Positions 8,912 through 63,948 of a stretch of 64,000 nucleotides of DNA are shown piece after piece (position 1 is the stretch's first letter; each line of letters opens with the position of its first letter). Below the pieces are notes generated by a model, which had not been told where the DNA came from, made no database searches, and saw only the letters and a program-made list of their open reading frames with translations. Source of the stretch: Candidatus Magasanikiibacteriota bacterium (GTDB taxonomy: Bacteria > Patescibacteriota > Patescibacteriia > Magasanikbacterales > UBA922); contig DOYU01000019.1 of the NCBI GenBank assembly GCA_003518365.1, forward strand, positions 40,224 through 104,223, in the 5' to 3' direction. The position numbers and the translations under genes were made by a program.

Positions 8912-9772
8912 TTATATAGTATCGAGATATGCAAGCAATGCATCTTGCCAACGTCGCTGCACCGGTCCTTTTGTATTCAACAACATTGAATGCATTGGCG
9001 CTTTTGCAGGACGCGGAAACTGTGATGCAGGCACAGGGCTGACATCAATATCAATATTTTTTATGTCAAAAATTTCCTTTGCCCATCCATACCAACTACA
9101 TCCTCCACTATTCGCACCGTGATAGATGCCAAATGGGTATGATTCTTCCAAGACTTTCTTTGTAAACAATGCGACGTCTGGTGCATATGACGGCGAACTT
9201 ATTTGATCAGTTACAACATCAAGATGATCTTTTTCTGCGGCAAGGTGGATCATCGTATCCACAAAACTTCGCTTTGAGCCTTCCCCTACTCCGGCTTTCC
9301 CAAACAATCGAGAAATACGAATAATATATGCGTCAGCTTCCGCCTTCATTACTTCTGTCTCACCAAGCAATTTTGTCTCTGCATATCTACTGAGAGGATG
9401 AGGCGCAGCATCTTCTGCATATCCGTCAGCTTGTACACCGTCGAATACATAATCAGTAGAATAATGGACGAAAACACTTCCATGTTCTTTTGCATACAGT
9501 GCGAGTCGCCCAGGCGCAATACCATTTACTTCTGTTGCAAGATCATACACGGCAGCGTCTGTTTCTATAGTATCGACGGCGTTCACCGCCGCTGCGTTGA
9601 TCACCATATCTGGTTGTTCTTTTTCAAACAATGCATTGACTGCATGTTCATCTGTAATATCACAGTCATCTTTATCGATCTGAATCACCGTATACGTATC
9701 ATCACGCTCAAAAAGAGCAGCAACTGCCTGCCCCAGAGTCCCTTTTGCACCAAAAAGAAGAAGTCGTTTCAT
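8912..9772 (-). CDS. rfbD: dTDP-4-dehydrorhamnose reductase
   Basis: MKRLLLFGAKGTLGQAV...YSTDYVFDG...SRYAETKLLGE is the RmlD signature. Start set at MKRLLLFG (ATG at about 9770-9772). Confidence 0.8.
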   Translation of the reverse strand: MKRLLLFGAKGTLGQAVAALFERDDTYTVIQIDKDDCDITDEHAVNALFEKEQPDMVINAAAVNAVDTIETDAAVYDLATEVNGIAPGRLALYAKEHGSVFVHYSTDYVFDGVQADGYAEDAAPHPLSRYAETKLLGETEVMKAEADAYIIRISRLFGKAGVGEGSKRSFVDTMIHLAAEKDHLDVVTDQISSPSYAPDVALFTKKVLEESYPFGIYHGANSGGCSWYGWAKEIFDIKNIDIDVSPVPASQFPRPAKAPMHSMLLNTKGPVQRRWQDALLAYLDTI

Positions 9773-9845: not shown

Positions 9846-9875
9846 CTCCGAACGTGACCGCGGTCACGTTCGGAG
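9846..9875. terminator. Perfect 30-bp palindrome ctccgaacgtgaccgcggtcacgttcggag (terminator and/or operator)
   Basis: Read directly. Lies between the NUDIX stop and the rmlD start on the minus strand. Confidence 0.5.
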
Positions 9876-9881
9876 CATCTC

Positions 9882-10352
9882 CTATAGCTTCTTTGGATCC
9901 CACGGACGAATCGCGTGTCCGCTATACAGACCGTCGTTGATGTAGACATCCACATGGACAAAATACCCATGAAGCACCCATGGCAGAAAGTGCTGATCGG
10001 CGGGGAGTGTGGGAATCGCGGGGATATCGTAAATCGAGAACCACTGCAATGCACCTTCTCGCCCGTTTGATGTGGGTATGCCGCTAAACTGCGTGACTCG
10101 ATACATGCGAACACGACGAGTCAGACATCCATCCACAAACACGGTAAGCAGCCCGACATCTTCCGTTTCAAGTGCAGTGAGCCCAGTCTCTTCAAAGAGC
10201 TCAGCTAGTGCGCATTCGAGGAACGTCTGTCCGTCCTTCAACTTTCCACCAGGTCCATTCCACTTTCTATAATGGGGTGCATACGGCTGCGCCCCTTGTA
10301 TCATCAGGACTTTCCCATCCCTGATCGGATACACGAGCACTGCGTCAATCAT
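9882..10352 (-). CDS. NUDIX hydrolase
   Basis: NUDIX box GGKLKDGQTFLECALAELFEETGL. GC about 52%, above background. Confidence 0.75.
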   Translation of the reverse strand: MIDAVLVYPIRDGKVLMIQGAQPYAPHYRKWNGPGGKLKDGQTFLECALAELFEETGLTALETEDVGLLTVFVDGCLTRRVRMYRVTQFSGIPTSNGREGALQWFSIYDIPAIPTLPADQHFLPWVLHGYFVHVDVYINDGLYSGHAIRPWDPKKL

Positions 10353-10510
10353 CGTGCACCTCCACTGTAGAAGCTATATCGTATCCTTATACAAAAACCT
10401 CCTTTTGTCAAACAAAAAAGCACCACATGTGATGCACTTTTGAAATGTGCCGGCGACTCTCTCGTGAGAAAGAGTCGCCAGCACGCACCTGAGGGTCTCC
10501 TTACCTGACC

Positions 10511-11236
10511 TCAGGCGTTGTCGATGTCCATGCCGAGTTCACCCTCCGCAAACAGGCGGAGACGCTCGATCTGGTTCGGGGCACTCCAGATGTCGAGGAG
10601 TCGCACCCAGTCTGTCAGCCGTGCCTTGGCTGCGTCGAGGTTCCCCTGGCTGACGAGCCAACGCATGTAGAACTCAACTCGGCCAGCGTGGTCCTTCGAC
10701 TGGGTCTCACGCATGAAGTCGAGGTACTGGCAGTATTCGCCCTCGTTGAAGGCGATCGCCCCCGACTCCATAAGTCCAACACCGATCTTCGTCCGCACGA
10801 CCCACCAAGCCGGCCCGCGGTAGTCCTCGAAGACGCCACTCAGAAGGTCGTACGCTTCCTCGTTCAGGGCATCTTGTCGCTCAGGATGGTTGCCATTGTG
10901 CTTCGCACACGCGGAAGCCGCATTGTGCAAAAGCAATGCTTTGACCTCGACAGGCCCAGTGAACGTTCCAGATGCATTCTCACAGCAGACACGAATAAAC
11001 AGATCGAATCGCTCAAGTGATTCCGGATTGACATTGACCCCGTTCTGAACCTGCCGCTTACTGGCGGCGATACGGTAGTAATTGACAACCAGCTGCGAGG
11101 CATTGTATACCCCTGTCACGACGGCATACGCGTACAGATTTTGGTCGAGCAGCGACCTATAGAGCGCAGCCCCGTCACCGACGGGGACCTGCCCTTCTAG
11201 CATGAGCACTCTCGCCAGTTGTGGAATCACTTTCAT
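10511..11236 (-). CDS. Hypothetical protein, GC-rich (about 58%)
   Basis: 241-aa ORF with high GC and GC3 bias, and no recognisable motif. Followed 3' by a GC-rich hairpin plus a second hairpin and TTTTTTGTTTGAC. Confidence 0.5.
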   Translation of the reverse strand: MKVIPQLARVLMLEGQVPVGDGAALYRSLLDQNLYAYAVVTGVYNASQLVVNYYRIAASKRQVQNGVNVNPESLERFDLFIRVCCENASGTFTGPVEVKALLLHNAASACAKHNGNHPERQDALNEEAYDLLSGVFEDYRGPAWWVVRTKIGVGLMESGAIAFNEGEYCQYLDFMRETQSKDHAGRVEFYMRWLVSQGNLDAAKARLTDWVRLLDIWSAPNQIERLRLFAEGELGMDIDNA

Positions 11237-21604: not shown

Positions 21605-22102
21605 TTAACGATAGAACCGCCCGTCGAGCATGGTGCGTTCGAGCGTGCCCAGGCGAGCCTCCCAGTCCCGCCAGCCCAAGACCTTCGTCGCCGCGACAAG
21701 ACGGACAACCAACGCTATCACCTTCGGGTAGATCTCGGCAACAGCATCGCCAAGGTACCGATGATGCAGGTATGTATTGATGTCGCTCCAGCTGACCAAC
21801 AGTCCCGAAGGAAAACTGGGATGCACTCCATCCCAGTGGCCGAGATGCCAGTACTCCCAGCCTTCAGCATGCCTTTCAGTCGGCCTCACGAGGTACTCTT
21901 CGTAGTGCTGGAGGACCCGTGTATACCACATCACCCAGGCCTCTGTGACAGTGCTCTGAAGCATAGGCACGCCCACCAAGACTCTCAAAGCCTCGCGAAT
22001 TCTACAAAACTCATCGGAAGTCCAGACACGATCCGTGTCAGCCAAAGTGACGGCGACATAGGCAGCGGCCTCCGAGAAATTTGTAAACATCGTCACGTCC
22101 AT
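21605..22102 (-). CDS. Hypothetical protein, GC-rich (about 58%)
   Basis: 165-aa ORF with high GC. Followed 3' by the GC hairpin cccgcgccatcga-aga-tcgatggcgcgg plus a second hairpin and T7. Confidence 0.5.
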   Translation of the reverse strand: MDVTMFTNFSEAAAYVAVTLADTDRVWTSDEFCRIREALRVLVGVPMLQSTVTEAWVMWYTRVLQHYEEYLVRPTERHAEGWEYWHLGHWDGVHPSFPSGLLVSWSDINTYLHHRYLGDAVAEIYPKVIALVVRLVAATKVLGWRDWEARLGTLERTMLDGRFYR

Positions 22103-32351: not shown

Positions 32352-32828
32352 ATGATGCGACATTGGTTCGAACTTGCGATGCTCGCGGTGTTGATGGCGC
32401 TCGGCTGGACGCCCTCGGCATTCGCCGAGCTCCCGACGCCGACGACCAACGACGACGCGACGACGGCGACCATCAACGCCAGCATCGGCATGGAGGTCGA
32501 CGAGACCGTCACCAAGGTTCACAGCCTCGGCCTCGCCGAGCTGCTCGTGTCGGCTGCGCCGCCGCACTTCTTGGACAACGCCGTCCTCACCGACCGCATC
32601 ACCGTCGCGGTCGTGAAGGACTTCAACATCGGCCACGGCGCAGGAGGCCTGGGCTTCGCGGGCGACATGCCCAACGACGCCATCTCCCAGCTGCTCGACC
32701 CCGGTAACGCCAGGCTCAAGGAGGTGATTGACCGTATGGTCGGTCAGGAACCGAGCGTGGCCCCGACGTCGGCGACCCACGACACCGCCCCCACCAAGGA
32801 GGAGGGTATGGGGCAAACGCCCCACTAA
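32352..32828 (+). CDS. Secreted hypothetical protein of foreign (high-GC) composition
   Basis: GC about 68%, with nearly all codon third positions G/C. SD ggtggagg upstream. Signal peptide MMRHWFELAMLAVLMALGWTPSAFA. The Pro/Thr/Ala/Asp-rich mature region resembles actinobacterial secreted proteins. Confidence 0.6.
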   Translation: MMRHWFELAMLAVLMALGWTPSAFAELPTPTTNDDATTATINASIGMEVDETVTKVHSLGLAELLVSAAPPHFLDNAVLTDRITVAVVKDFNIGHGAGGLGFAGDMPNDAISQLLDPGNARLKEVIDRMVGQEPSVAPTSATHDTAPTKEEGMGQTPH

Positions 32829-37861: not shown

Positions 37862-40525
37862 TTATGGAAGGTATTTTTTTAGATATGACCCAGTATGACT
37901 CTGCGTACTCTTGCGTGCCACTTCCTCTGGCGTTCCGACAGCCACGAGCGTACCACCTTTATCCCCGCCTTCTGGACCAAGATCAATGATCCAGTCAGCA
38001 CATTTGATCAAGTCCAAATTGTGTTCGATAATCATGACGGTATTTCCTTGCGACACAAGTCGTTGAATTACCTCAATCAATTTTTTTACATCCTCATAAT
38101 GAAGCCCTGTGGTAGGCTCATCGAGGAGATACAATGTTTTTGTGGTATTCCTCTTTGCAAGTTCGCGAGAAAGCTTGATACGTTGTGCTTCTCCTCCGGA
38201 AAGCGTGGTCGCAGACTGCCCGAGGGTGAGATAATCAAGTCCTACTTCATTCAATACTTTTAGCTTATCGTGAATCGGTGGAATATCCTGAAAAAATTCT
38301 TCGGCATCTTCTATGGTCATCTCGAGGATATCTGCAATACTTTTGCCAGCATAATGAACTTGCAATGTCTCTGCATTAAACCGTTTGCCTTTGCACACAT
38401 CACATAAAATCTCAACACTCGGCAAAAAGTGCATCTCAATATTCAGCACACCTTTTCCTTCACAGTTTTCACAACGTCCTCCTGGACGATTGAAACTAAA
38501 TCGCCCTTTCTTATACCCACGAATGCGCGCTTCTGGCGTCATGGTAAACAAGTCCCGAATCGCATCGTATGCTTTCGTATATGTTGCAGGATTACTTCGT
38601 GGTGTGCGACCAATAGGATTCTGATCGATCTGAATAATCTTATCAATGTATTCTATTCCTTTGATCGTCTTATGCGCACCGATGCGCTTCTCGACATGGT
38701 GCAGCTTATTTGCAACAGAACGATAGATAATGTCATGCATGAGTGTCGACTTGCCAGATCCTGATACACCAGTCAGACAGACCATCCTGCGAAGTGGGAC
38801 TTCGACTGTCAAATTTTTCAGGTTGTTTTCAGTGGCTCCGGTGATCTTCAACTTTGGCGTCGAGCTATCAACTTTTCGTCGTTTGGTTGGGACATCTATT
38901 TTTTTCTCTCCACGAAGATACTGACCCGTAAGTGATTTCTCAGCACTTCCGTATGTTTTCACGTTCGAAAATTCAGTTTGTTTTGCATGTGATATCTTGG
39001 ATTTTTTTGTTTCAAGCAACGCTTCCCGTGTTCCCGAATAGACAACATGTCCTCCATGCTTTCCCGCACCAGGACCAATGTCCACCACCCAATCACTCAC
39101 AAGAATTGTTTCTTCATCATGTTCTACAATAATAATGGTATTGCCAATATCACACAGATTTCTGAGCGTCGATACAAGCAAATCATTGTCACGCTGATGA
39201 AGCCCAATCGTTGGTTCATCCAGCACATACAATGCACCGACGAGCTGCTGGCCTACCTGAGATGCCAGACGGATACGCTGCGCTTCTCCTCCGGAGAGCG
39301 TCCCAGCAGTTCGATTGAGTGTCAGATAATGAAGTCCGACATTAAACAAAAATTGTAGTCGATTGGTAATTTCATTCAATGCGGCACTTGCAATATCGAG
39401 ATCGCGTGCATTGAGCGCATCAAACAGTCCTTCAAAAAAAAGTTTTCCTTCTTCTATCGTCAACCCCGTTACCTCCCAAATATTTTTATTATCAATTTTT
39501 ACCGCAAGTGCATTTTCATTGAGACGTTTTCCTTCACACACAGGACAGAGTTCTTCGCTAAACAATTCTCGTGTTCCAAGACCGGTACACGCAGCACAGT
39601 ATCCGTATGGGCTATTGAAACTAAACATGCGAGGTTCTATTTCTGGAAAACTATACCCATCGTTTGGACACGAATATTCTGTAGAAAAAACTTGTTCTTC
39701 GTCATCAGGATAAATCACCGTACATAGACCATTTGACAGATCAACTGCTGTTTCGATTGCTTCACCAAGACGCTGTCCATCTTCTTTCTTTTTTTCGGGA
39801 TCGAAATCAACAGTTGGAATGGTATCAACAACAATTTCAATCGTATGCTTATTATTTTTTGATAACTTAATCTGTTCACGCAGTGACTTCATCTTTCCGT
39901 CCACCCGGACTTCTAGAAATCCACTGTTATACATATCATAGAGCATCTGATAATACTCCCCTTTTCTACCACGAACCACAGGAGACAAAATTTTCAATTC
40001 TTTTGAGGTATTTTTTTTCTTTTGGTGCGTTGTCACAATACGTTCCGTAATTTCATCCGTCGTCATCTTTTCAATCTTGGTATCACATACAGGACAATGT
40101 GGCTTTCCGACACGTGCATACAACACACGCAAGTAATCGTATATTTCAGTAATCGTCGCAACGGTCGAACGTGGATTGGCACTATGCGCCTTTTGGTCTA
40201 TAGAAATAGCAGGAGAAAGTCCCAAAATTTCGTCGACATCAGGTTTTGTCATGTTGCCAAGGAATTGGCGAGCATAGGCAGACAAACTCTCGATATACCG
40301 ACGTTGTCCTTCGGCAAAAATCGTATCAAACGCAAGCGAAGACTTCCCTGATCCAGAGAGTCCTGTAAATACAATCATTTTATTTCGTGGCAACTCGAGA
40401 GAAATGTTTTTCAAATTGTGTTCTCTCGCTCCGCGAATCACTATTTTGTCTTGCATATATAGAAAGCTTGGAAGGCTTGGAATGCTTGGAAGGCCTAGAA
40501 ATTCCAAGACTTCTAGGCCTTCCAA
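37862..40525 (-). CDS. uvrA: Excinuclease ABC subunit A (UvrA)
   Basis: Two ABC ATPase modules ([12 protein letters not shown]; [11 protein letters not shown]), zinc-finger cysteines, and LSGGEAQR signature motifs. The probable start is MQDKIVIRG near 40456. Confidence 0.9.
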
Positions 40526-40545
40526 GCATTCTTAGATTTATAGCC
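40455..40545. repeat. 21-bp perfect inverted repeat (gaatgcttggaaggcctagaa-N10-ttctaggccttccaagcattc) flanked by tandem GCTTGGAA units, in the uvrA promoter region
   Basis: Read directly. A member of the AAGGCTTGG/CCAAGCCTT repeat family, also at 23757-23810 and 61905-61975. Confidence 0.75.
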
Positions 40546-40854
40546 AAAAAAACCCTTCTTTGGGCTTCTTATAGTGGGTATAGGAAAGAACTTGGCATAG
40601 TATAGCCTGACTTCGTAAAAAGTCAATTATGCACAGTCTATCTTAGCAAACCCTTGCAAATAATACAAAAATGGTCTACTCTTTTAACGTTCTGTGGAAA
40701 CAGAACCTGCGTCACGCTCGGCGATCCTTCAGCGCGAATGAACAGGAATATACATATTGTATAGCTTGCTCTTTCGCTCGGAAGGTCGGTCCGAGCACGT
40801 CCGGAAAGTCCGGACATTGTAGAGTGAAAATCCGTCACAAGAAGGAAGTACGCC

Positions 40855-40983
40855 ATGCGTTGCATTTGGAACTGGATGAAGGCTCACCCGGGCGCCACGG
40901 CGCTCGTCGCCTACAGCTACCTGATGTCCCTCGCCCTCGGGGTGGACTACCTCATCGAGGGCGTCCACCACTTCACCTCCTGA
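40855..40983 (+). CDS. Micro-ORF (42 aa) with extreme GC3, preceded by a structured GC-rich leader
   Basis: MRCIWNWMKAHPGATALVAYSYLMSLALGVDYLIEGVHHFTS, with about 95% G/C at third positions. SD-like aaggaag upstream. Leader hairpin ctcggaaggtcggtccgag. Followed by the GC hairpin ccccgccgac...gtcggcgggg. Confidence 0.35.
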   Translation: MRCIWNWMKAHPGATALVAYSYLMSLALGVDYLIEGVHHFTS

Positions 40984-41085
40984 CGCAGACCTCGTCCAAC
41001 GCCCCGCCGACACCACGTCGGCGGGGCTACGGACGAGATGAAAAAAAACTATTGAAACGCCATTTGGGCGATTTTTTTATTGAAA

Positions 41086-41165
41086 AAGTTCTATGGGAAA
41101 CAAAAACAACTCATTGATTTGAGTTGCTTTTGACTGGTCCCGATGGTTCCTCCAGGACCAATCGG
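41086..41165 (-). repeat. Conserved 3' module copy A (hairpin caactca-N-tgagttg, TTTTTGTTT, GGACCAGTCAAAAGC, GC hairpin)
   Basis: aaacaaaaacaactcattgatttgagttgcttttgactggtcccgatgg...ccaatcggg. It is in the same relative position (just 3' of a minus-strand ORF) as copies B, C and D. Confidence 0.7.
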
Positions 41166-41214
41166 GAAAAAAAGAACAAACAACGTAAAGTTGCAGAGGA
41201 CGACGCTAGGTCAG

Positions 41215-41437
41215 CTACTCGGACTGGTACTTCGCCAACGTTTCCTCAATGCCGAGAATGCCCGTGGTGCGAATCACATCAAGAGTAAGCCCTTGCGCCA
41301 CAACTTTTTTCAGCACAACAGGAATGGCCAACTCGTTGGTCAGGTCATCGAAGATTCGATCCGCTACCATGGTATACGGACCAGCAGTATCGGCGATCTG
41401 CGCCAATGCAGCACGCAGCCGGGTCAGGTCTATCATG
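41215..41437 (-). CDS. Cassette-like small hypothetical protein A (about 74 aa)
   Basis: Start set at MSTFNMIDL with GGAGG 9 nt upstream. Moderately elevated GC. Followed by module A. Confidence 0.4.
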
Positions 41438-41555
41438 TTGAATGTACTCATGTAGACAAACCTCCATGTCGTGTCCATACTTAGAGTATCAAATTTTTTC
41501 ACTCCTGTCCCGTTGATTTCAACCTTCCCTTATGCCCCTACATGTCAAACTTCTA

Positions 41556-41645
41556 TAACAAAAACAACCCATGATTGAGTTGTTTTTGTTTTCTCCCGAT
41601 GGCTCTACCAGCGCCATCGGGAAACATATCGAGACGCGAACGTCT
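41556..41645 (-). repeat. Conserved 3' module copy B
   Basis: aacaaaaacaac-ccatgattga-gttgtttttgtt is a 12-bp stem bidirectional terminator, plus the GC hairpin cccgatggc-tctaccagc-gccatcggg. Confidence 0.7.
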
Positions 41646-41650
41646 CAGGT

Positions 41651-41941
41651 TTACTTTTTTTGTGCCATCTGTTCGCGCATATCCTCAATACAGACCCTGA
41701 GGACAACGATCGTTCCGGCTTCGAACCAGAGCAGCCCGAGGAATAAGTCAATGCACCCAGTCACCTCGGTGCTAAGGCACAATTTGCCGAAGGCCCCACT
41801 ATCTTGGTGCACAACAGCCACGTACACGTGCAAGCATGCGACAGAGTAAGCGACCAACCGAATACCGATTCTGGATATCAACTTGGCGAACTCGATCCTC
41901 TCGTATGCAGCGCAGAGCTGCGTGAACTGTACCTCGTTCAT
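41651..41941 (-). CDS. Cassette-like small hypothetical protein B, C-terminal TM anchor
   Basis: 96 aa with GGAGGGAG SD. Hydrophobic IDLFLGLLWFEAGTIVVL near the C-terminus. Elevated GC. Confidence 0.45.
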   Translation of the reverse strand: MNEVQFTQLCAAYERIEFAKLISRIGIRLVAYSVACLHVYVAVVHQDSGAFGKLCLSTEVTGCIDLFLGLLWFEAGTIVVLRVCIEDMREQMAQKK

Positions 41942-42089
41942 ATCTCCCTCCGTGAGATGCTATTTTTGCCCCTACGGAGACACGTCCGCAAATAAGGCTT
42001 ACCACAAACATCTTCCTACGTCAATATAATATGCTATACTCTCTACACCTATTTTTGAATTAGAAATTAGTAATTTTGAATTATTTCAA

Positions 42090-42347
42090 ATGTACACTCT
42101 CTACATTCTCCGCTGCAAAGACAATTCACTTTACACAGGGATAGCAAAAGATCTCGAGAAACGTCTCGAGATGCATCGCGCTGGGACAGGATCAAAGTAC
42201 GTTCGCGCAAAATCTCCTTTTGCTGTAGTGTATACAGAGAAATGCAAAGATAGATCAAGTGCAACGAAGAGAGAAATGGCAATTAAAAAAATGTCGAAAG
42301 AAAAAAAAGAAACATTGGTTATTTCTCCCCCTACCAGGGGGAGCTAG
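42090..42347 (+). CDS. GIY-YIG nuclease domain protein (UPF0213/YhbQ-like)
   Basis: LYILRCKDNSLYTGIAKDLEKRLEMHRAG...YVRAKSPFAVVYTEKCKDRSSATKREMAIKKMSKEKK is the canonical small GIY-YIG. The C-terminal tail runs into a palindromic element. Confidence 0.85.
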   Translation: MYTLYILRCKDNSLYTGIAKDLEKRLEMHRAGTGSKYVRAKSPFAVVYTEKCKDRSSATKREMAIKKMSKEKKETLVISPPTRGS

Positions 42348-42420
42348 AGGGGGTCTGCTGACAAAAACAACGTTCATAATACTAACGACCCCTCCCAACC
42401 TCCCCTTATAGGGGAGGAGA
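42320..42420. repeat. Two polypyrimidine/polypurine palindromic elements between GIY-YIG and recQ
   Basis: tctccccctaccagggggag cta gagggggtct (homologous to 4076-4117) and cctccccttataggggagg. Confidence 0.8.
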
Positions 42421-42431
42421 TCCTTACTTCC

Positions 42432-44588
42432 ATGACCATCGACCACGCAAGACAATCCCTCAAACATACCTTCGGCTTCGACTCCTTCCGCCCAATGCAA
42501 GAGGAGATTGTTCAGGCTGTCATAGAAAAAAAAGACGTCCTTGTTCTGATGCCCACGGGCGGTGGCAAATCTCTTTGTTATCAATTGCCAGCAACTGTTC
42601 AAGAGGGACTCACCGTCGTCGTCTCCCCTCTTATCGCACTGATGAAAGATCAAGTGGAAGGACTCGTAGAAAATGGTATCAAAGCAGCGTATCTCAATAG
42701 TTCTCTTGAACTCGATGAACATCAAGATATTCTCGCACAGCTCGAACGAGGTGAGATAGACATTCTCTATGTTTCTCCAGAAAAACTGGTCACACAAAGT
42801 TTTCAATATTCGCTAAAAAAATGGAATGTCCAACTTTTTGCCATCGACGAAGCACATTGTATTTCACAATGGGGACACGATTTTCGTCCAGAATATACCA
42901 AACTCCGCGCACTCAAAAATATATTTCCTGATGTTCCTATTATTGCTCTGACAGCAACAGCAGACAAAACAACGAGAAAGGATATTCTGGCGCAATTGCA
43001 ATTGAAAGATCCAAAAATATTTATTTCTTCTTTTGACAGACCAAATCTAGAACTCAACGTATTGCCTGCACACAAACGCATCGAACGCATCATTACCTTT
43101 GTCAAAAAAAGAAAACACGAATCTGGAATTATTTATTGTCTGAGTAGAAATCAAACAGAAAAAGTTGCGAATGCACTGATCCAAGAAGGCATCAATGCAG
43201 GCTACTATCACGCAGGCATGATCTCTCACGAGCGCGCAAAAGCACAGGAAGACTTTATTCACGGAAGAACAAATGTCGTTGTTGCCACGATTGCTTTTGG
43301 TATGGGAATCGATAAAAGCAATGTCCGCTATGTCATTCACCACAACTTGCCAAAAAATCTCGAGGGCTATTATCAAGAAATAGGACGCGCAGGACGAGAT
43401 GGATTGCCAAGTGAAACACTCCTCTTCTACTCGCTCGCAGATGTTGTCTTGCTAAAAAAGTTTGCAACAGAATCTGGACAACCCGCACTCCAACTTGCGA
43501 AATTGGATCGTATGAAACAATTTGCCGATGCATTGATTTGTCGACGACGTATTTTGCTTTCCTATTTTGGAGAAGAAGTAAAAAGTGATTGCAAAAACTG
43601 CGATGTCTGTGAAAATCCTCCAGAACTAGTTGACGGTACAGAGATCGCACAGATCGCACTGTCGGGAATTGCGAGAACAAACCAAGATGTGGCGATCGGT
43701 ATGCTCATAGATATTTTGCGTGGGTCTGGCAAACAGGAAGTATTGAACCAAGGCTACCATACCATAAAAACCTATGGCGCAGGCAGTCATATTTCTCCAG
43801 AAGACTGGCAACAATACCTCTTGCAAATGCTCAATCTCGGTCTTGTTGACGTTGCATACGACCAACACCATGCATTGAAAATTACTACGGCAGGCGCGCG
43901 AGTATTAAAAGGTGAAGACACCGTACAGTTTGTTTCCCTGGCGTATATCGAAGAACGCGCCATCACTGCAAGTAGTAAAGAAAGCAAAACAAATTCTCGA
44001 AGAAAAGAAGCCGAAGAAGTATTGTTTGACATGCTCCGCGATCTCCGTTTTTCTCTCGCAAAAAAAGCAAACATTCCTCCGTATCATGTGTTCACCGATA
44101 AGACGCTCGACGAGATGGCACGTGACATGCCAACAAATGAAGAAAAAATGAAAAAAGTTTCTGGTATTGGTGATAAAAAATTTGCCAGCTATGGCAAACT
44201 CTTTATCGATGAAATTACAAAATTTATTCAAGAAAAAGATAAAGCCGGTGAAAAAATCCAAGGCACAACGCAAGACATCACCTATGCGTATTATCGCCAA
44301 GGTATGCCGGTCGGGATCATTGCAAAAGAACGCGATCTCAAATCGGTCACGATCTACGGGCATCTCGCAGATCTGTATGAAAAAGGATATGATATCAATA
44401 TCCACGATTTCATTGATAAACGGGATCTAAAAAAAATCTGTGAGAATCTCAAAGAAAAAGGCGTCCCACAAAAATTGAAATCGTTGTATGAACGGTTTGA
44501 TGGAACGTTTGATTATGACAAGCTCCGCCTTGCTGTTGCGTATTATCGGAAAGAAAATAGGAAGCAAGGGGTTATTGAGTATAGGTAA
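42432..44588 (+). CDS. recQ: ATP-dependent DNA helicase RecQ with a C-terminal extension
   Basis: FRPMQEEIV, GGGKSLCYQLPA, DEAH (DEAHCISQWGHDFRPEY), RQC zinc cysteines (CKNCDVC) and an HRDC-like region. An extra roughly 110 aa lie C-terminal of the HRDC. Confidence 0.9.
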   Translation: MTIDHARQSLKHTFGFDSFRPMQEEIVQAVIEKKDVLVLMPTGGGKSLCYQLPATVQEGLTVVVSPLIALMKDQVEGLVENGIKAAYLNSSLELDEHQDILAQLERGEIDILYVSPEKLVTQSFQYSLKKWNVQLFAIDEAHCISQWGHDFRPEYTKLRALKNIFPDVPIIALTATADKTTRKDILAQLQLKDPKIFISSFDRPNLELNVLPAHKRIERIITFVKKRKHESGIIYCLSRNQTEKVANALIQEGINAGYYHAGMISHERAKAQEDFIHGRTNVVVATIAFGMGIDKSNVRYVIHHNLPKNLEGYYQEIGRAGRDGLPSETLLFYSLADVVLLKKFATESGQPALQLAKLDRMKQFADALICRRRILLSYFGEEVKSDCKNCDVCENPPELVDGTEIAQIALSGIARTNQDVAIGMLIDILRGSGKQEVLNQGYHTIKTYGAGSHISPEDWQQYLLQMLNLGLVDVAYDQHHALKITTAGARVLKGEDTVQFVSLAYIEERAITASSKESKTNSRRKEAEEVLFDMLRDLRFSLAKKANIPPYHVFTDKTLDEMARDMPTNEEKMKKVSGIGDKKFASYGKLFIDEITKFIQEKDKAGEKIQGTTQDITYAYYRQGMPVGIIAKERDLKSVTIYGHLADLYEKGYDINIHDFIDKRDLKKICENLKEKGVPQKLKSLYERFDGTFDYDKLRLAVAYYRKENRKQGVIEYR

Positions 44589-44591
44589 AAC

Positions 44592-45227
44592 ATGTACTTG
44601 GTTAAAGACTTCAAAAAAATACTTAAAGATCTTGAACCCTTTGTGACTCGCGCAGATAAGAAAGGTAGACTTTGGTTACATAATGGAAATAATGAAAAAA
44701 GAAAAATGGATGCTATCAAAGTAAAAGATGGAACTTTATTTAAACTTAGACCTCGAGAAGCGTGGGCGAATTGGCTCATATGTGTCGTCTTACAACATAT
44801 AACGGGTGATGAAATAACTTTTTCTGATAGTGAACACGGAGATGGTTATATCTGGAATAAAACAAAAGGCGAAGTCATTATTACTGAACATGTCGCAGCG
44901 ATGGATTTCCCAAACACCACTATCCCAACAGGAGAAGAACGTGTTATTTGGGCGATTGAAAAAAAAATCAAAAAAGGGAAAGAATATGCACAAGGTAAAC
45001 ACTTGGTAGTTTTCATGGATGGTGCTGGGAAATGGTATCCAACTAAAGTAGGGAGACAAACTTCAGGAAAACATAATTTTGAAAGTATATTTTGCGTAGG
45101 GTTAATTACTGGAGATGAAAGCGGATACAAGTATGGACTAACACAGTTCTTTCCGTCACATTCACCTTGTTGGGAAATCCAGATAAATTCTGATTTTACG
45201 GATTGGACAATTACACAAATTCAATAG
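44592..45227 (+). CDS. Hypothetical protein, probably co-transcribed with recQ
   Basis: 211 aa. The start is 4 nt after the recQ stop. No recognisable motif, though D/E/K spacing could suggest a PD-(D/E)xK fold (speculative). Confidence 0.5.
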   Translation: MYLVKDFKKILKDLEPFVTRADKKGRLWLHNGNNEKRKMDAIKVKDGTLFKLRPREAWANWLICVVLQHITGDEITFSDSEHGDGYIWNKTKGEVIITEHVAAMDFPNTTIPTGEERVIWAIEKKIKKGKEYAQGKHLVVFMDGAGKWYPTKVGRQTSGKHNFESIFCVGLITGDESGYKYGLTQFFPSHSPCWEIQINSDFTDWTITQIQ

Positions 45228-45344
45228 ATATACTAATGCGAGTTAAACAGTTAGCATTAGAATCCCAAAAGAACCTCTTATTAGCTGGCTCCATAGTCCC
45301 GAAGGGCTGTGGAGCCAGCCAAGAGGAAAACGATTTTCCAAACA

Positions 45345-45445
45345 ACATTAGTAAAAACAAAAACAACCCTTTCTAAGAGTTGCTTTTGACTGGTCCGACG
45401 CGCTCGTTCTTCTGATCGACCACGAAGGGCCAGTCAGCGCATGAG
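45345..45445 (-). repeat. Conserved 3' module copy C
   Basis: attagtaaaaacaaaaacaaccctttctaagagttgcttttgactggtcc, plus the GC-rich IR cgacgcgctcg...cgagcgcgtcg. Confidence 0.7.
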
Positions 45446-45479
45446 CGCGTCGAAGTGGGAGCCCGTACAGGATGTCGGA

Positions 45480-45893
45480 TTACTTGCCGATCAGGAGGAT
45501 CAGCAGCATGATGAGGATCCCCATGCTCTGGAAAACGTTCACGACGATGGACACATCCCTCTGTCGCGTACGTCGCGTACTCAGATCCTCGGCCTGCTCG
45601 ATCGCGAGACCATCCTGGGTGCGGAGCGTACTCTCGATGCAGTCCACATAGTGGTCAATGAGGATGTCTCCAGGAAGCACACGTTTCGCGACAATGCTTT
45701 CGCTGGGTCGAAAATGTACGGCCTCGCAATAATCCACAACACCGGTTTCGCCGCTGATATGATAGGACTTTATCGTAATCTTGCGCCAACCAAAGTATGG
45801 CACCCACACGTAGCAGATGCTACGAAATTCATCGCGCACTCGAGGCCACTCCGTCTGGAACGTGAGACCAACGAAATTGAACTTCATGAGTCC
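45480..45893 (-). CDS. Cassette-like small hypothetical protein C, C-terminal TM anchor
   Basis: Start set at MKFNFVGL with a GAGGGGA SD. C-terminal MGILIMLLILLIGK. GC about 55%. A competing + strand ORF (45441..45983) is judged to be a shadow. Confidence 0.45.
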   Translation of the reverse strand, partial: GLMKFNFVGLTFQTEWPRVRDEFRSICYVWVPYFGWRKITIKSYHISGETGVVDYCEAVHFRPSESIVAKRVLPGDILIDHYVDCIESTLRTQDGLAIEQAEDLSTRRTRQRDVSIVVNVFQSMGILIMLLILLIGK

Positions 45894-45977
45894 CCTCTTC
45901 ACAGGGTGGGTAAGGCTCCCTGTTTGCGCATAGCTAAGCAAAAAATGTACCTTTTGTCAATAGTATACACTCAAAAA

Positions 45978-46072
45978 AATTAGTAAAAACAAAAACAGCC
46001 TTTTCACAAAGCTGCTTTTGCATTGTCCCCGACGATCGGTGCGACAATACGCACGACGTCGGGGTAGTCCCC
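45978..46072 (-). repeat. Conserved 3' module copy D
   Basis: attagtaaaaacaaaaacagccttttcacaaagctgcttttgcattgtcc, plus the GC hairpin ccccgacg...cgtcgggg. Confidence 0.7.
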
Positions 46073-46459
46073 CTAGTTGTTGACAAGAACTGCGATCACC
46101 CCACCCAGGATGAGCGCGGTGATCGCCAGCACGATCACCAGCCATGTCTTGCTATCGCCATGGGCACGTCCTTGGCCAGCATGAGCCTCGGACACGGCAT
46201 CCAGGCTGATCGACGTCACGGTATTGAGGATCGTGGGGTCCTCGACCTTGACGACGGGATGACCGATCAGTGCTCCAAGCGGAACCTGCCAGTCGCTCAC
46301 CCGTCCATGAACTTGGACGTTGACCTGCTGATGAACATGGTTCATCCTGACGGTCAGGGACACCATGTGACCGGTCGCTTCTTGCACGTAACATGCTCCG
46401 CCACGAGCCTCGAGCTCCTCAATGGGCAGCTCGTACGGAATATCATCACAATAAAAAAG
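46073..46459 (-). CDS. Cassette-like small hypothetical protein D, C-terminal TM anchor
   Basis: Start set at MLFYCDD with a GGGAGGAG SD. C-terminal WLVIVLAITALILGGVIAVLV. GC about 58%. Confidence 0.45.
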   Translation of the reverse strand, partial: LFYCDDIPYELPIEELEARGGACYVQEATGHMVSLTVRMNHVHQQVNVQVHGRVSDWQVPLGALIGHPVVKVEDPTILNTVTSISLDAVSEAHAGQGRAHGDSKTWLVIVLAITALILGGVIAVLVNN

Positions 46460-46603
46460 CATGACTCGTCTCTCCTCCCATGGTTGTCTGGATGCATAGA
46501 TAATCATAAAAATATATTTTTGTAAAGGATAATTATTCGTTCGCATACAAATGCAGATTCTGTTACCATACAACTATACCACTGAACCCATAACAACATT
46601 TTT

Positions 46604-47062
46604 ATGCTCAAACAAAACTCCCCCGCCCCACCATTCTCCCTCCCGGACCAAAACGGAAAAATGCAAAGCCTAACAGACTACTCAGGCAAAAAAGTGCTGC
46701 TCTACTTTTATCCAAAAGATGATACACCCGGCTGTACGACCGAAGCGTGCAACTTTCGTGATAGACTGAACGAACTAAAAGACCACGGCGTGCAAGTCCT
46801 CGGTGTGAGTAAGGATACTATCGCATCACACAAAAAATTCTCAGAAAAGTTTGATCTCAACTTTCCCCTTCTCTCTGATGAAAATGGAACACTCGTGAAA
46901 GCCTACGGCGTCTGGAAAGAAAAAAGTATGTACGGGAAAACATACATGGGCATTTCTCGTGAATCATTTCTCATTGATGAAGAAGGCAACCTTGTGAAAC
47001 ATTATGAAAAAGTAAAGCCAGAAGAACATGTCGAGGAAGTATTGCGGGATGTCGAAGCATAG
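46604..47062 (+). CDS. bcp: Thiol peroxidase Bcp (peroxiredoxin)
   Basis: FYPKDDTPGCTTEACNFRD is the Bcp/PrxQ active-site motif. Confidence 0.85.
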   Translation: MLKQNSPAPPFSLPDQNGKMQSLTDYSGKKVLLYFYPKDDTPGCTTEACNFRDRLNELKDHGVQVLGVSKDTIASHKKFSEKFDLNFPLLSDENGTLVKAYGVWKEKSMYGKTYMGISRESFLIDEEGNLVKHYEKVKPEEHVEEVLRDVEA

Positions 47063-56341: not shown

Positions 56342-57022
56342 CTAATGTTCCTTGATACATTTCTCGCGGTAATGCTCGGCCGCGAGATAGATCGCCGGGT
56401 TGAGCCCGGTCACGTCAGCGAGTCCCTTCACCGTGGCCCACATGGAGATAGGCTGAGTGAACTTCGCACCAGTGCAGTCTGAACCAGTGAAGTTTGCTCC
56501 GGTAAAATCCGCACCGCTAAAGTCCGCCTCGATGAAGATTGCACCAGTAAAGTCCGTATTAATCAGGCGTGTCTGGGTGAGCTTCGCCTCAGTAAAGTCC
56601 GCCTCGGTAAACTTTGCCTTTGTGAGCTCTGCCCTGGTAAGAATAGCTCTGGTAAGATCGGAACCTCTGAATTCAGCTGCACTCAGATTCGCCCAAGAGA
56701 GATCTGCACTCTCAAAACACCCCCCAGTGATCTTCACTCTGGTAAAGTCTGATTGACTGAGATTTGCTTCAAAAAACCACACTCCAGAAAGCTTCGCTCC
56801 AGTGAAATATGCACCACAGAAATTCGCTCCTTTGAAGTTTGCCCTTCGAAGGTCAGCACCCAGGAGTTTCGCCCTGCTCAGGTTCGCCCCACAAAGATAC
56901 TTATTATTGAAGTCCGCCCCACGGAGGTCTATCCAATAAGCATCAGCCCCCTGACGTAACGTGTTACTCTCACTTACCTTCTCTGCCTCGAGGAGAGTAC
57001 GATAACTACGCTTCTTTGACAC
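56342..57022 (-). CDS. Pentapeptide repeat protein
   Basis: Continuous A(D/N)LxxAxFxG quintets over about 200 aa. Confidence 0.85.
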   Translation of the reverse strand: MSKKRSYRTLLEAEKVSESNTLRQGADAYWIDLRGADFNNKYLCGANLSRAKLLGADLRRANFKGANFCGAYFTGAKLSGVWFFEANLSQSDFTRVKITGGCFESADLSWANLSAAEFRGSDLTRAILTRAELTKAKFTEADFTEAKLTQTRLINTDFTGAIFIEADFSGADFTGANFTGSDCTGAKFTQPISMWATVKGLADVTGLNPAIYLAAEHYREKCIKEH

Positions 57023-63502: not shown

Positions 63503-63535
63503 AAAAAACCGCCTTATAGCGGTTTTTTTATTTAA
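63503..63535 (+). terminator. Rho-independent terminator
   Basis: aaccgccttatagcggtt followed by TTTTTTTATTT. Confidence 0.7.
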
Positions 63536-63948
63536 TAAAGTTTTTTGAACTTAGTGAGTTTAAAGTTAACATTATTTCCATCTTTGTCTTTTCCTGAAAA
63601 AAACCTTAATCTTCTGTTTTGAGGGTCAACAAATTTCAACATGTTAAAAGCTGAGTATATTATAAATGTATATATGAGTACATTTGCAACAATAGGTGTC
63701 CAGTCAATCAATTGGGGCTGATTTATCAATTTATCTAGATTGTCTCCTTCCACAATTTTATTAATCACTTTATAGCGAAAAATGTAAAAGAAAGTATACC
63801 CTAGTATCGTTTCGTAAATAAAAGCTTTTCTGTAAAGTGCCACAATTAACACTCCAATCAACACAAGTATTTTTATAAGTTGGAATGCTATCAATGTTGT
63901 TGACTGGTGATAATAAAAAAAGATTGCTAAATTCAATATATTAGCCAA
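63532..63948 (-). CDS. Hypothetical membrane protein
   Basis: Several hydrophobic helices, AT-rich, no motif. Confidence 0.35.
   Translation of the reverse strand: MANILNLAIFFYYHQSTTLIAFQLIKILVLIGVLIVALYRKAFIYETILGYTFFYIFRYKVINKIVEGDNLDKLINQPQLIDWTPIVANVLIYTFIIYSAFNMLKFVDPQNRRLRFFSGKDKDGNNVNFKLTKFKKLY

Follow-up and report, generated by a model that had tools for sequence, protein, structure and literature searches.

Self-contained GC-rich gene units with related 3′ hairpin modules in two variable intergenic slots of a Candidatus Magasanikbacteria chromosome

The window analysed here is a 64-kb stretch of chromosome from Candidatus Magasanikbacteria (CPR), a tiny groundwater bacterium, and the neighbouring genes at the locus are all housekeeping genes. 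Two intergenic slots carry small GC-rich units: slot 1, from uvrA to a GIY-YIG gene, holds units E, A and B, and slot 2, from recQ and a 211-aa gene to bcp, holds units C and D (Table 1). This arrangement was seen in at least 22 independent contigs. A preliminary description of the DNA had listed A, B, C and D as mutually unrelated minus-strand ORFs, and all-against-all BLASTP indeed detected no similarity among them; it had overlooked a fifth unit, E, on the plus strand, as well as several further places in the window at which the same unit anatomy recurs. Its coordinates hold for B, whereas the starts of the other three move, to 41451 rather than 41437 for A (MSTFNMIDL, the likeliest start, with GGAGG 9 nt upstream), to 45887 rather than 45893 for C and to 46462 rather than 46459 for D. 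The two pairs that it described do bracket the GIY-YIG, recQ and 211-aa genes, but this looks incidental: what is present is a pair of variable intergenic slots, and variability extends to the 211-aa gene.

Table 1 Features of the two slots (window coordinates)
Feature	Position	Strand	Description
E promoter and leader	40654–40854	+	TTGCAA 40654–59, −10-like box ~40675–82, ~170-nt structured 5′ leader
ORF E	40855–40983	+	42 aa, small hydrophobic peptide, GC 0.63, GC3 0.91
E 3′ end	40991–41080	+	GC-rich hairpin 40991–41037, then A-tract/U-tract terminator ~41055–41079
A module	41085–41168	−	AT hairpin with A and U tracts 41099–41132; GC hairpin 41141–41168
ORF A	41215–41451	−	78 aa, soluble, GC 0.52, GC3 0.62
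B module	41543–41646	−	AT hairpin 41557–41590; GC hairpin 41597–41623; z −7.0
ORF B	41651–41941	−	96 aa, two hydrophobic segments, GC 0.52, GC3 0.68
B 5′ UTR and promoter	41942–42030	−	contains GGAGGGAG; −35 box ATTGACG 42019–42025
C module	45342–45453	−	AT hairpin 45355–45388; GC hairpin 45397–45453
ORF C	45480–45887	−	135 aa, TM helix 111–135, GC 0.53, GC3 0.67
C promoter	45925–45961	−	TTGACA 45955–45960, 18-nt spacer, TAGCTA; consensus match only
D module	45974–46065	−	AT hairpin 45987–46020; GC hairpin 46028–46065; z −6.1
ORF D	46073–46462	−	129 aa, TM helix 104–129, GC 0.57, GC3 0.66
Divergent D/bcp promoter region	46463–46603		minus strand: TTTACA, 18-nt spacer, TATCTA

The elevated GC content reported earlier is confirmed: A to D have a GC of 0.52–0.57 and a GC3 of 0.62–0.68, compared with 0.36–0.45 and 0.27–0.46 in the neighbours, and with E included the units reach a GC3 of 0.62–0.91 against roughly 0.35–0.42 in native genes. 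Codon preferences are globally inverted relative to native genes (for example, AAG at 0.76 versus 0.25), and the GC-rich stretch extends from approximately the transcription start to the first hairpin. Each such island has long ORFs on both strands, and gene callers sometimes took the opposite one (a 180-aa ORF lies opposite C); the order GC3 > GC1 > GC2 in A to D supports the minus-strand frames. D is protein-coding: most of its differences from the orthologue in the related species L011 are synonymous, and two indels of 3 nt keep the frame (dS 0.275, dN/dS 0.43). E is 80% identical to its orthologue in a second species, L017 (dS 0.36, dN/dS 0.25). These dN/dS values are raised relative to the 0.04–0.12 of core genes, and the dS of both ORFs is 3–4 times below that of adjacent core genes, a deficit for which selection at synonymous positions, and not recent exchange, may be responsible.

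Tail anchors had been proposed for B, C and D. C and D each have a lone C-terminal hydrophobic helix and are probably tail-anchored membrane proteins; B has two hydrophobic segments (residues 25–45 and 62–85) plus a charged tail and is therefore not tail-anchored. B and E are putative small membrane proteins, and A has no hydrophobic segments. Essentially no homologues of A, D and F exist among 5.8 billion protein clusters: the sole relative of A in that set is ORF X of a third species, L018 (26% identity), and D has one further cluster, P0039 (78% identical), which occupies the same slot adjoining bcp in L011. B forms a single-member cluster. The preliminary description had suggested that the tail-anchored small proteins could be toxins, immunity proteins or host-interaction factors; searches of A to D against Pfam, PHROG and PADLOC gave no match, and AlphaFold2 models were poor, that of C being confident for the C-terminal helix only. 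The A/X family and that of G, another GC-rich unit of like anatomy in the window, are nevertheless recognizable at the protein level, at 26–47% identity.

Each unit comes with a consensus promoter, a Shine–Dalgarno site and a double-hairpin terminator, the promoter and terminator being predicted to be active. The E leader contains a long predicted hairpin and is conserved in L017 and L018, in the latter better than the ORF itself; three sequences do not suffice to assess covariation. The B promoter lies back to back with that of the GIY-YIG gene, and the D/bcp promoter region is 90–92% identical to that of L011, compared with ~80–83% inside bcp.

Each 3′ region folds into a pair of hairpins in tandem (z-scores −4.1 to −7.0). 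The E 3′ end (−46 kcal/mol, z −6.9) holds inverted repeat I8, the GC hairpin of the A module is CCCGATTGG...CCATCGGG, and the B module has an additional small hairpin at 41631–41646, directly past the stop codon. Per 110 nt, the 3′ flanks of GC-rich ORFs fold far more stably than those of native genes (−47.7 versus −27.3 kcal/mol, p = 1e-4). A covariance model of 12 modules, whose stems vary in a compensatory way (CAAC/GTTG to CAGC/GCTG), scored A to D at 67.7, 56.9, 66.3 and 63.8 bits, and the best score outside these four copies in the 64 kb was 24 bits; the module pattern had no matches in shuffled sequence. The A and C modules share an identical GAGTTGCTTTTGACTGGTCC, and the segment ATTAGTAAAAACAAAAACA is 19/19 identical between C and D, as had been stated. 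The exact consensus proposed earlier fits A and C, with B and D as variants; A and B have their GC hairpin in common. They also share 10 nt of flank past the hairpin, which fits tandem duplication. The reading of the modules as bidirectional terminators is reasonable for the AT hairpin, and those of C and D were flagged as terminator-like in a terminator scan, but the hairpin type is generic: its pattern recurs in more than 119 unrelated metagenome contigs, where it is an ordinary terminator. Because it is found in so many unrelated organisms, part of the similarity among modules is convergence.

We compared the locus in the three related species (L017, L018 and L011; ~83% nucleotide identity), contigs of the same species being identical. 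In L017, uvrA–E adjoins the GIY-YIG gene directly and A to D are all missing; L011 retains D alone, in the same slot, and lacks C. ORF B is missing from L017 and L018. L018 instead has a lone ORF, the A relative X, between the B promoter and a B-type module. X is unrelated to B, and the GC hairpin 3′ of it is 28/28 identical to that of B. B and X have orthologous promoters, and the orthology covers the beginning of the 5′ UTR, homology ending at the X Shine–Dalgarno site. The breakpoints of the replacement are in the 5′ UTR and immediately ahead of the GC hairpin. E is syntenic in three species, with the N-terminal two-thirds replaced in L018 and a C-terminal HHFT motif and the stop retained. 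D is a mosaic relative to L011, 90–96% identical over the promoter and N-terminal two-thirds and 70–77% over the C terminus and module, where the L011 stem is kept through compensatory changes despite a ~70-nt loop insertion. In the CPR genome L176, G occupies the corresponding slot within a collinear block of 11 genes; the flanking proteins there are only 57–79% identical to those of the window and G is still GC-rich, so simple recent transfer is not an explanation. Such units, as the synteny of D and G indicates, can be highly stable, and losses could account for most of the differences between species.

Modules of the same subtype also follow unrelated ORFs elsewhere. A C-type module (104 nt, 85% identical) follows an unrelated ORF adjoining tRNA-His in L108, and a D-type module (51 nt, 90% identical) lies 3′ of an unrelated ORF in L160. 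A survey of other loci gave 11 distinct covariance-model matches of at least 49 bits. Ten of the 11 lie 3′ of sequence that is GC-richer than its contig (0.47–0.62, most 0.51–0.62), in a single orientation and typically just downstream of a GC hairpin; the exception, L103, is 3′ of sequence at GC 0.34. Tandem cassettes are flanked by direct repeats of the 3′ arm, and in L108, where two cassettes adjoin tRNA-His, a 63-nt repeat extends 5–6 nt into the 3′ end of the tRNA.

The explanation that we favour, at about an even chance of being right, is that these are accessory expression cassettes comparable to morons, in which the common terminator module also serves as homology for recombination. 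In this reading the two slots hold five self-contained monocistronic units, each running from an AT-rich sigma-70-type promoter and Shine–Dalgarno site through a small lineage-restricted ORF of foreign-looking, GC-rich codon usage to a GC-rich stem–loop without a U tract and then an A-tract/stem/U-tract hairpin, a putative bidirectional intrinsic terminator. Units are gained, lost, duplicated or replaced between close species while the flanks stay unchanged. The first role of the module would be to terminate and insulate each unit, and it probably also shields the 3′ end of the mRNA. From the module subtypes behind unrelated ORFs and the direct repeats in tandem arrays, we infer that the module also provides recombination homology, at which general recombination, without a dedicated recombinase, probably duplicates, exchanges or deletes cassettes.

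Unlikely, but with several observations behind it, is an account in which nothing is mobile: resident orphan genes descend vertically, evolve fast and are sometimes lost, their modules being alike through local tandem duplication and through convergence, terminator design being constrained. The synteny of D in L011, of E in three species and of G across deep divergence fits this account, as do the positional homology of A and X (26% identity), the dN/dS of 0.25–0.43 against 0.04–0.12 in core genes, the generic AT hairpin design and the flank common to the A and B modules. It has more difficulty with B and X, unrelated proteins whose orthologous flanks share a hairpin identical at 28/28 positions, with C-type and D-type modules behind unrelated ORFs at other loci and with the low dS of D and E, and it leaves the GC-rich codon usage without a reason. 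That the GC-rich stretches are instead structured non-coding RNAs or chance ORFs favoured by the low stop-codon density of GC-rich DNA is scarcely credible. GC-rich islands in AT-rich genomes are frequently structured RNAs, and the long ORFs on both strands, the scarcity of homologues and the poor structural models speak for this reading; however, three-base periodicity is strong (GC3 up to 0.91), D changes as a coding sequence does, the A/X and G families are seen at the protein level, Shine–Dalgarno sites are well placed, signal peptides or TM helices are credible, and neither the GC-rich stretches nor the E leader has an Rfam match.

The preliminary description had taken conserved flanking modules and atypical composition as the hallmark of mobile cassettes, integron-like or MITE-associated. 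Its cassette-like part stands, in the accessory turnover, the shared module subtypes and the atypical composition. Neither of the specific readings is supported. For the integron, Pfam annotation of called genes across the 64-kb window gave no integrase, other tyrosine or serine recombinase, or transposase among those examined, RYYYAAC/GTTRRRY cores are missing from the four 3′ flanks (the description had itself recorded the lack of an integrase and of attC cores), and each unit has its own promoter; for the MITE, there are no terminal inverted repeats past the 13-bp terminator stem and no consistent target-site duplication. A looser version, quite improbable in our view, is a site-specific cassette system like an integron or CALIN, the module playing the part of attC and the recombinase being unlinked or of a novel type. 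Unrelated orphan ORFs each trailed by a related imperfect palindrome, tandem arrays in one orientation with direct repeats of the 3′ arm, one module type with differing ORFs at differing loci and the L108 repeat reaching into tRNA-His would all suit it, and CALINs without an integrase nearby are common (PMC4889954). Against it stand, besides the missing recombinase and cores, the lack of any R″/R′ pair at attC spacing in the region, arms of only ~13 bp without L boxes, the separate promoters, B/X breakpoints that avoid a fixed AT-hairpin core, and the absence of integrons from very small genomes (PMC4889954). The module could also be a mobile palindromic repeat (REP/REPIN or MITE) that spreads itself to gene 3′ ends irrespective of the ORFs, which we hold to be very improbable. 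The lineage does have a REP/RAYT system, because L017 encodes a Y1 transposase between inverted GGCTCCATAGTCCCGNAGGGCTGTGGAGCC repeats; one copy of this repeat lies at 45287–45316, beside the C module, and module copies are dispersed in related contigs. But the RAYT-linked REP differs in sequence from the module, the window contains no RAYT, the 11 matches except L103 keep one orientation 3′ of GC-richer sequence rather than being scattered through intergenic DNA, and neither a conserved GTAG head nor the MITE hallmarks just named are present.

The units were compared with known systems. For unit E alone, a hydrophobic peptide of fewer than 60 aa that is less conserved than its UTRs, with a long, structured and well-conserved 5′ UTR, recalls type I toxin–antitoxin loci, although neither an antisense RNA nor an overlapping partner was identified at E. 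Like integron arrays and CALINs (PMC4889954), the locus has unrelated, mostly orphan ORFs in the same orientation, each followed by a related imperfect palindrome, and within a lineage the palindromes are more similar than the ORFs; it differs in having no integrase, R″/R′ cores or L boxes, in its short A/U-tract terminator stems, in the promoter of each unit, in arrays of two units only and in replacement breakpoints off any fixed core. With REP/REPIN and RAYT systems, one of which the lineage has, it has in common dispersed extragenic palindromes that lie at the 3′ ends of genes and are capable of acting as terminators, but the module is unrelated in sequence to that REP, no RAYT lies in the window, and the module is tied to GC-rich ORFs in one orientation (L103 excepted).

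ORFans are typically AT-rich relative to their host. Replacement flexible genomic islets and ORFans resemble the units in being short, fast-evolving, lineage-restricted genes in variable slots between conserved core genes; the units here are, by contrast, strongly GC-rich from approximately the transcription start to the first hairpin.

The favoured reading takes its model from the phage moron of Hendrix and Juhala. Morons are recognized by having a promoter and a terminator of their own and an atypical GC content, by lying between genes that adjoin each other in relatives, and by hotspots whose inserts differ (PMC2920897). Like morons, the units each consist of one ORF equipped with a promoter and a factor-independent terminator of its own, differ in composition from their neighbours, are inserted between genes adjacent in relatives, occupy hotspots with differing inserts and are mostly of unknown function. 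Morons are defined in phage genomes, whereas no phage or prophage signal was found at this locus; the units are GC-richer than their host, where morons are often AT-richer; and they share a homologous 3′ module, with the G family syntenic across deep divergence. The locus combines cassette-like turnover with a constant terminator module, yet is not an integron, in the housekeeping chromosome of a CPR bacterium.

The preliminary description placed four small ORFs (A–D) on the minus strand, and all are present, with small corrections to their starts. A fifth unit, the plus-strand ORF E, had been missed. As was claimed, A–D are unrelated to one another (no similarity in an all-against-all BLASTP search), and their GC content (0.52–0.57; GC3 0.62–0.68) stands well above that of the neighbouring genes (0.36–0.45; GC3 0.27–0.46); with E included, the range is 0.52–0.63. 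GC content at the three codon positions speaks for the minus-strand frames of A–D and against the long antisense ORFs. A 70-aa rather than 96-aa call and a 180-aa ORF opposite C were attributed to gene-caller choices and not to real differences. By consensus match, each unit has a putative TTGACA-like −35 box, a −10 box and a Shine–Dalgarno site.

Coordinates and main properties of the GC-rich ORFs in the window and of the homologues of G in other contigs
Feature	Contig	Position	Strand	Properties
A	window	41215-41451	minus	78 aa
B	window	41651-41941	minus	96 aa
C	window	45480-45887	minus	135 aa
D	window	46073-46462	minus	129 aa
E	window	40855-40983	plus	42 aa, GC3 0.91; own leader, GC hairpin, terminator
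F	window	32352-32828	plus	GC3 0.89
G	window	10511-11236	minus	GC-rich ORF
H	window	9882-10352	minus	NUDIX domain
I	window	21605-22102	minus	GC-rich ORF
K	window	56342-57022	minus	pentapeptide repeats
G homologue	L176	5649-6374		32-47% identical
G homologue	L175	2973-3908		32-47% identical
G homologue	L177	5001-5759		32-47% identical
G homologue	L178	90-824		32-47% identical

That the GC-rich stretches might be non-coding is contradicted by their codon periodicity and by their pattern of substitution. D and its orthologue in the related species L011 differ mainly at synonymous positions and, within the first 80 codons, by two 3-nt indels that keep the frame. For this pair dS is 0.275 and dN/dS 0.43, and for E (compared with the related species L017) the values are 0.36 and 0.25, as against 0.66–1.4 and 0.04–0.12 for the flanking core genes. 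The ORFs are genuine coding genes under relaxed or diversifying constraint, and the low dS of D and E could be due to more recent exchange between species or to constraint at synonymous sites. Identity along D is mosaic: 90–96% over the promoter and the N-terminal two thirds, 70–77% over the C-terminus and the 3′ module, and about 80–83% to L011 within bcp. Compared with synonymous-codon shuffles, mRNA structure has a mean z of −1.67 in the GC-rich ORFs and −0.99 in native genes, a difference that does not decide for or against selected structure.

Tail anchors had been proposed for B, C and D. We counted as tail-anchored a protein with a single transmembrane helix at its extreme C-terminus and no N-terminal signal sequence, which is the predicted topology of C and D (one hydrophobic helix each, residues 111–135 of 135 and 104–129 of 129); B drops out because it has two hydrophobic segments, and A has no hydrophobic helix. 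The helix of C is confident in its AlphaFold2 model, which has a pLDDT of 50 (47 for D). Searches of Pfam, PHROGs and PADLOC gave nothing significant for A–E, F or G, and a marginal PHROG match for I (unknown function, E 0.005) was disregarded. E is preceded by a leader of about 170 nt (window 40683–40854; L017 5505–5665; 3190–3337 in L018, another related species) that has no Rfam match and is predicted to form a long hairpin. Conservation is higher in this leader than in the peptide, which in L018 has its N-terminal two thirds replaced. Type I toxins pair a small hydrophobic peptide with a controlling antisense RNA encoded in cis or in trans; E combines a small hydrophobic peptide with a structured, conserved leader, and may be a small membrane peptide that resembles a type I toxin or is otherwise regulated by RNA.

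Each of A–D is followed by a GC-rich hairpin that lacks a U tract and then by a stem lying between an A tract and a U tract (the AT hairpin), with fold z-scores of −4.1 to −7.0. The 19-nt identity reported between the C and D modules was recovered (19 shared bases, ATTAGTAAAAACAAAAACA); the modules of A and C agree over 20 bases (GAGTTGCTTTTGACTGGTCC), and A and B have the GC hairpin in common. A possible third copy of the C/D repeat at 46592–46618, 70% identical and overlapping the bcp start codon, was judged to be a chance match. With a covariance model of 12 modules, across which the stem is preserved by compensatory changes (CAAC/GTTG to CAGC/GCTG), the four window copies score 57–68 bits; the next-best matches in the window, at 24 and 19.5 bits, lie 3′ of the GC-rich ORFs K and G. 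An intrinsic terminator has a stem-loop followed directly by a U tract, and an additional upstream A tract makes it bidirectional. The AT hairpins of all four modules have this form, in agreement with the earlier account of the modules as bidirectional intrinsic terminators, and would be predicted to act in both directions.

The AT hairpin is generic in design. More than 119 metagenome contigs contain its pattern, for the most part in perfectly palindromic terminators of unrelated organisms, and terminators of this style, with other stem sequences, also follow native genes of the window. Five pattern matches on viral contigs, none with an adjoining GC hairpin or GC-rich flanks, were likewise taken for generic terminators. 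Over the 110 nt 3′ of the GC-rich ORFs, mean folding energy is −47.7 kcal/mol, compared with −27.3 kcal/mol for the 3′ flanks of native genes that have an intergenic gap (p = 1e-4). No Rfam family was found over the whole window at the gathering threshold or over 40550–41250 at the E-value threshold, and the window contains no tRNAs.

The surroundings are those of an ordinary chromosome of a groundwater lineage of the candidate phyla radiation (CPR), Candidatus Magasanikbacteria. Neighbours include uvrA, recQ, bcp, uvrB and an ABC-F protein gene, and the other annotated genes of the window are either housekeeping (Mur ligase, glycosyltransferases, DnaB, RecR, ClpB, MraW/MraZ, UvrC, UvrA, RecQ, UvrB, MurJ, LepA, RecJ and RNase H, for example) or without a Pfam match. 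The same arrangement recurs in at least 22 independent contigs and is therefore not an assembly artefact; those of the same species (L001–L010) are about 100% identical to the window and so say nothing about polymorphism. Just upstream of the likely uvrA start, a long imperfect palindrome of GAAGGCTTG-type 9-nt repeats occupies 40460–40542, with perfect 21-nt arms at 40480–40500 and 40511–40531; in L017 the same repeat peptide falls in a long ORF extending upstream of uvrA. In the spacer between the GIY-YIG gene and recQ (42320–42431), runs rich in C and in G (CCCCCTACCAGGGGGAG..., CCCCTCCCAACCTCCCCTTATAGGGGAGGAG) pair as a hairpin; two relatives instead have an additional gene of low GC here, with 212 aa (AAA_33 kinase-like) in L017 and 123 aa in L018. 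The closest relatives of recQ itself (42432–44588) outside Magasanikbacteria are mostly from Bacteroidota (46–51% identity among species-representative genomes), which hints at a possible old lateral origin.

A RecQ scan of species-representative genomes recovered three related Magasanikbacteria (L017, L018 and L011/L022), with about 83% nucleotide identity to the window in conserved genes. The comparison across relatives that the preliminary description had suggested proved informative: what the slots hold in place of A–D differs between the three species. Between E and the GIY-YIG gene, the slot contains A and B in the window and a single ORF, X, in L018, and is empty in L017, where the terminator of E abuts the GIY-YIG promoter and A and B are absent. 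X (86 aa) stands alone between a B-orthologous promoter and a module whose GC hairpin is identical to that of B at 28 of 28 positions, and it shares 26% identity with A and is not related to B; homology between L018 and the window breaks off within the 5′ UTR and picks up again immediately ahead of the GC hairpin. A 9-nt direct repeat, GTAGGGGCA in minus-strand sense, brackets only B (41531–41545 and 41975–41992), from the 5′ UTR to just past the module; it could be microhomology, a target-duplication scar or chance.

The second slot, between recQ and bcp, is equally variable. In L017 it lacks the 211-aa gene, C and D and holds a 206-aa gene, a Y1 transposase between inverted REPs, YecM and a RelE-type pair; in L011/L022 a D orthologue with the same module (78% identical, 60% GC) adjoins bcp, and four other genes replace C and the 211-aa gene. 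These differences identify A–D as accessory genes in two variable slots, with flanks that outlast the ORFs between them. The REP-like palindrome GGCTCCATAGTCCCGNAGGGCTGTGGAGCC occurs in L017 at 9851–9893, 10459–10505 and 9162–9200, inverted and flanking the Y1 (IS200-like/RAYT) transposase of its recQ–bcp slot, and once in the window, at 45287–45316, between the 211-aa gene and the C module.

The proposed search for further module copies in metagenomes also bore fruit. Among the pattern matches listed, which are mostly generic terminators, an informative subset repeats the full anatomy of AT hairpin, GC hairpin, GC-rich ORF (GC3 0.67–0.85) and TTGACA promoter, and the ORFs of this subset have no Pfam domains. 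A C-type module (104 nt, 85% identical) lies 3′ of an unrelated 110-aa ORF in contig L108, and a D-type module (51 nt, 90% identical) lies 3′ of an unrelated ORF in L160. In L108 a second cassette stands in tandem with the first, and on either side of the two (at 235–308 and 922–996) lies a direct repeat of 63 nt with 97% identity between copies. This repeat comprises an AT hairpin and a second hairpin and runs 5–6 nt into the 3′ end of tRNA-His (992–1064, minus), resembling an att-site duplication. A search of these loci with the covariance model is partly circular, because they had been fetched by the hairpin pattern; in it, 10 of 11 distinct matches of at least 49 bits are 3′ of sequence GC-richer than its contig (0.47–0.62); the exception, in L103, follows sequence of 0.34 GC. 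Weaker matches include ordinary terminators after tRNA genes.

Shared modules behind unrelated genes had suggested integron-like or MITE-associated cassettes, and we weighed these readings together with a REP origin. Integrons are defined by an integrase, attC cores and mostly promoterless cassettes (PMC4889954), the cassettes being expressed from Pc. The integrase would be an IntI-type tyrosine recombinase within a few kb or at least in the genome, and the attC cores would be R″ (RYYYAAC) and R′ (GTTRRRY), 57–141 bp apart. The earlier remark that both are missing from the locus is borne out: Pfam annotation revealed no integrase, transposase or other recombinase among the called genes examined across the 64-kb window, the 3′ flanks of A–D contain no core on either strand, and the region 40690–46600 has no R″/R′ pair at 45–140 nt spacing. 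The units also appear to have consensus promoters of their own. On all three counts the integron (or CALIN) reading fails in the window.

A MITE would have terminal inverted repeats, a target-site duplication and copies placed independently of gene type. The sole inverted repeat here is the 13-bp terminator stem, and, L103 aside, the strong matches all follow GC-richer sequence; the MITE-associated reading is not supported either. In a REP element served by a RAYT, copies of the palindrome would also flank a Y1 transposase gene. Within the window no Y1_Tnp domain was detected, the RAYT of this lineage uses a palindrome other than the module, and the module keeps to a single position and orientation, leaving the REP/MITE reading weak. 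What stands of the claim of mobile gene cassettes is the cassette-like behaviour, in that slots swap contents and units share a module; the mechanisms offered for it are not supported.

A–E are not alone in the window. At least five further GC-rich ORFs (F, G, H, I and K; GC3 0.54–0.89) are present, and about one sixth of the window's genes are GC-rich units. A −35-like hexamer, TTGACR, precedes F, G, H and I, and all five are followed by strong 3′ structure; for F, G and I this resolves into a GC hairpin and then a terminator with A and U tracts whose sequence is unrelated. Relative to native genes, the GC-rich ORFs reverse their codon preference for practically every amino acid (AAG 0.76 versus 0.25; GAG 0.68 versus 0.21; A-ending codons 0.11 versus 0.29). 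Pfam domains were detected in H and K, and most units belong to no known family. Two outliers in the opposite direction, 1039–1665 (plus; no Pfam match) and 63532–63948 (minus), have unusually low GC (0.27–0.28).

Where this composition comes from was approached through homology. Relatives of A (beyond X), D and F are essentially absent from 5.8 billion protein clusters, the searches returning only one cluster for D, X for A and F alone, so no GC-rich donor lineage can be named. No significant PHROG match and no IMG/VR relatives of C or F were found, and literature searches on horizontal transfer, or on genes of high GC, in Magasanikbacteria or CPR turned up nothing relevant. G has a family of 27 representatives. 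Its homologue in contig L176 (38.5% identical; GC 0.58, GC3 0.74) occupies the same slot as in the window, with which L176 is collinear over 11 genes at 57–79% protein identity, amid neighbours of GC3 0.22–0.30 and with its own predicted promoter and double-hairpin terminator. L175 and L177 show the same GC contrast; overall, G homologues in CPR-like contigs have GC of 0.58–0.65 within genomes of GC3 0.22–0.43. Because G is syntenic and GC-rich over such deep divergence, simple recent transfer awaiting decay does not fit this gene class. Contig L178 is GC-rich throughout, with AT-rich promoters and terminators of the same style; it would fit a GC-rich CPR donor lineage and proves nothing.

The GC-rich stretch of a unit spans the transcription start to the first hairpin, which prompted the idea that each unit is a retro-copied donor mRNA. 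We set this aside: the B/X breakpoints are not at transcript ends, and AT-rich promoters flank GC-rich genes in the GC-rich L178 too. The remaining candidates are selection on mRNA or synonymous sites, GC-biased conversion driven by recombination in cassettes prone to it, and repeated seeding from some unsampled GC-rich gene pool.

The module would first of all be a terminator and insulator. Because it is found behind unrelated ORFs, and because direct repeats bound tandem cassettes, it may also provide the homology for duplication, exchange and loss of cassettes. Exchange at the shared double hairpin, if true, would amount to a cassette system without integron-type machinery, giving a minimal genome a flexible gene set without a dedicated recombinase. 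We think it improbable, on present grounds, that CPR chromosomes possess a separate class of orphan cassettes, transcript-bounded, fast-evolving and persistently GC-rich, whose codon usage is actively maintained by one of these candidate processes and whose exchange takes place at the module.

The genomes of CPR bacteria, which live attached to other cells, are tiny, and their accessory genes are mostly of unknown function. Several unit proteins are predicted to be membrane-anchored or secreted; the units vary between close species, and several of them, A, D and F among these, have next to no counterparts elsewhere in sequence space, a profile expected of host-interaction or conflict genes. 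Foreign composition usually decays; GC-rich usage kept in the same slot over deep divergence runs counter to this rule. The interest of the units lies mainly here: genes restricted to one lineage stay GC-rich within a minimal genome, which offers a concrete test case for synonymous-site selection or biased gene conversion in bacteria. A GC-rich island plus double hairpin may serve as a search key for the class in CPR genomes.

The closest known parallel is with phage morons, which have their own promoter and terminator and atypical composition, are inserted between genes that are adjacent in relatives, and occupy hotspots that hold different inserts (PMC2920897). The units differ in lying in a CPR chromosome among housekeeping neighbours, with no sign of a phage or prophage. 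Like morons, they are inserted where genes are adjacent in a relative (L017), appear from their sequence to have their own promoter and factor-independent terminator, and deviate from their neighbours in composition, with inverted codon usage. The best-supported reading is that A–E are autonomous accessory expression units that match phage morons in anatomy and behaviour.
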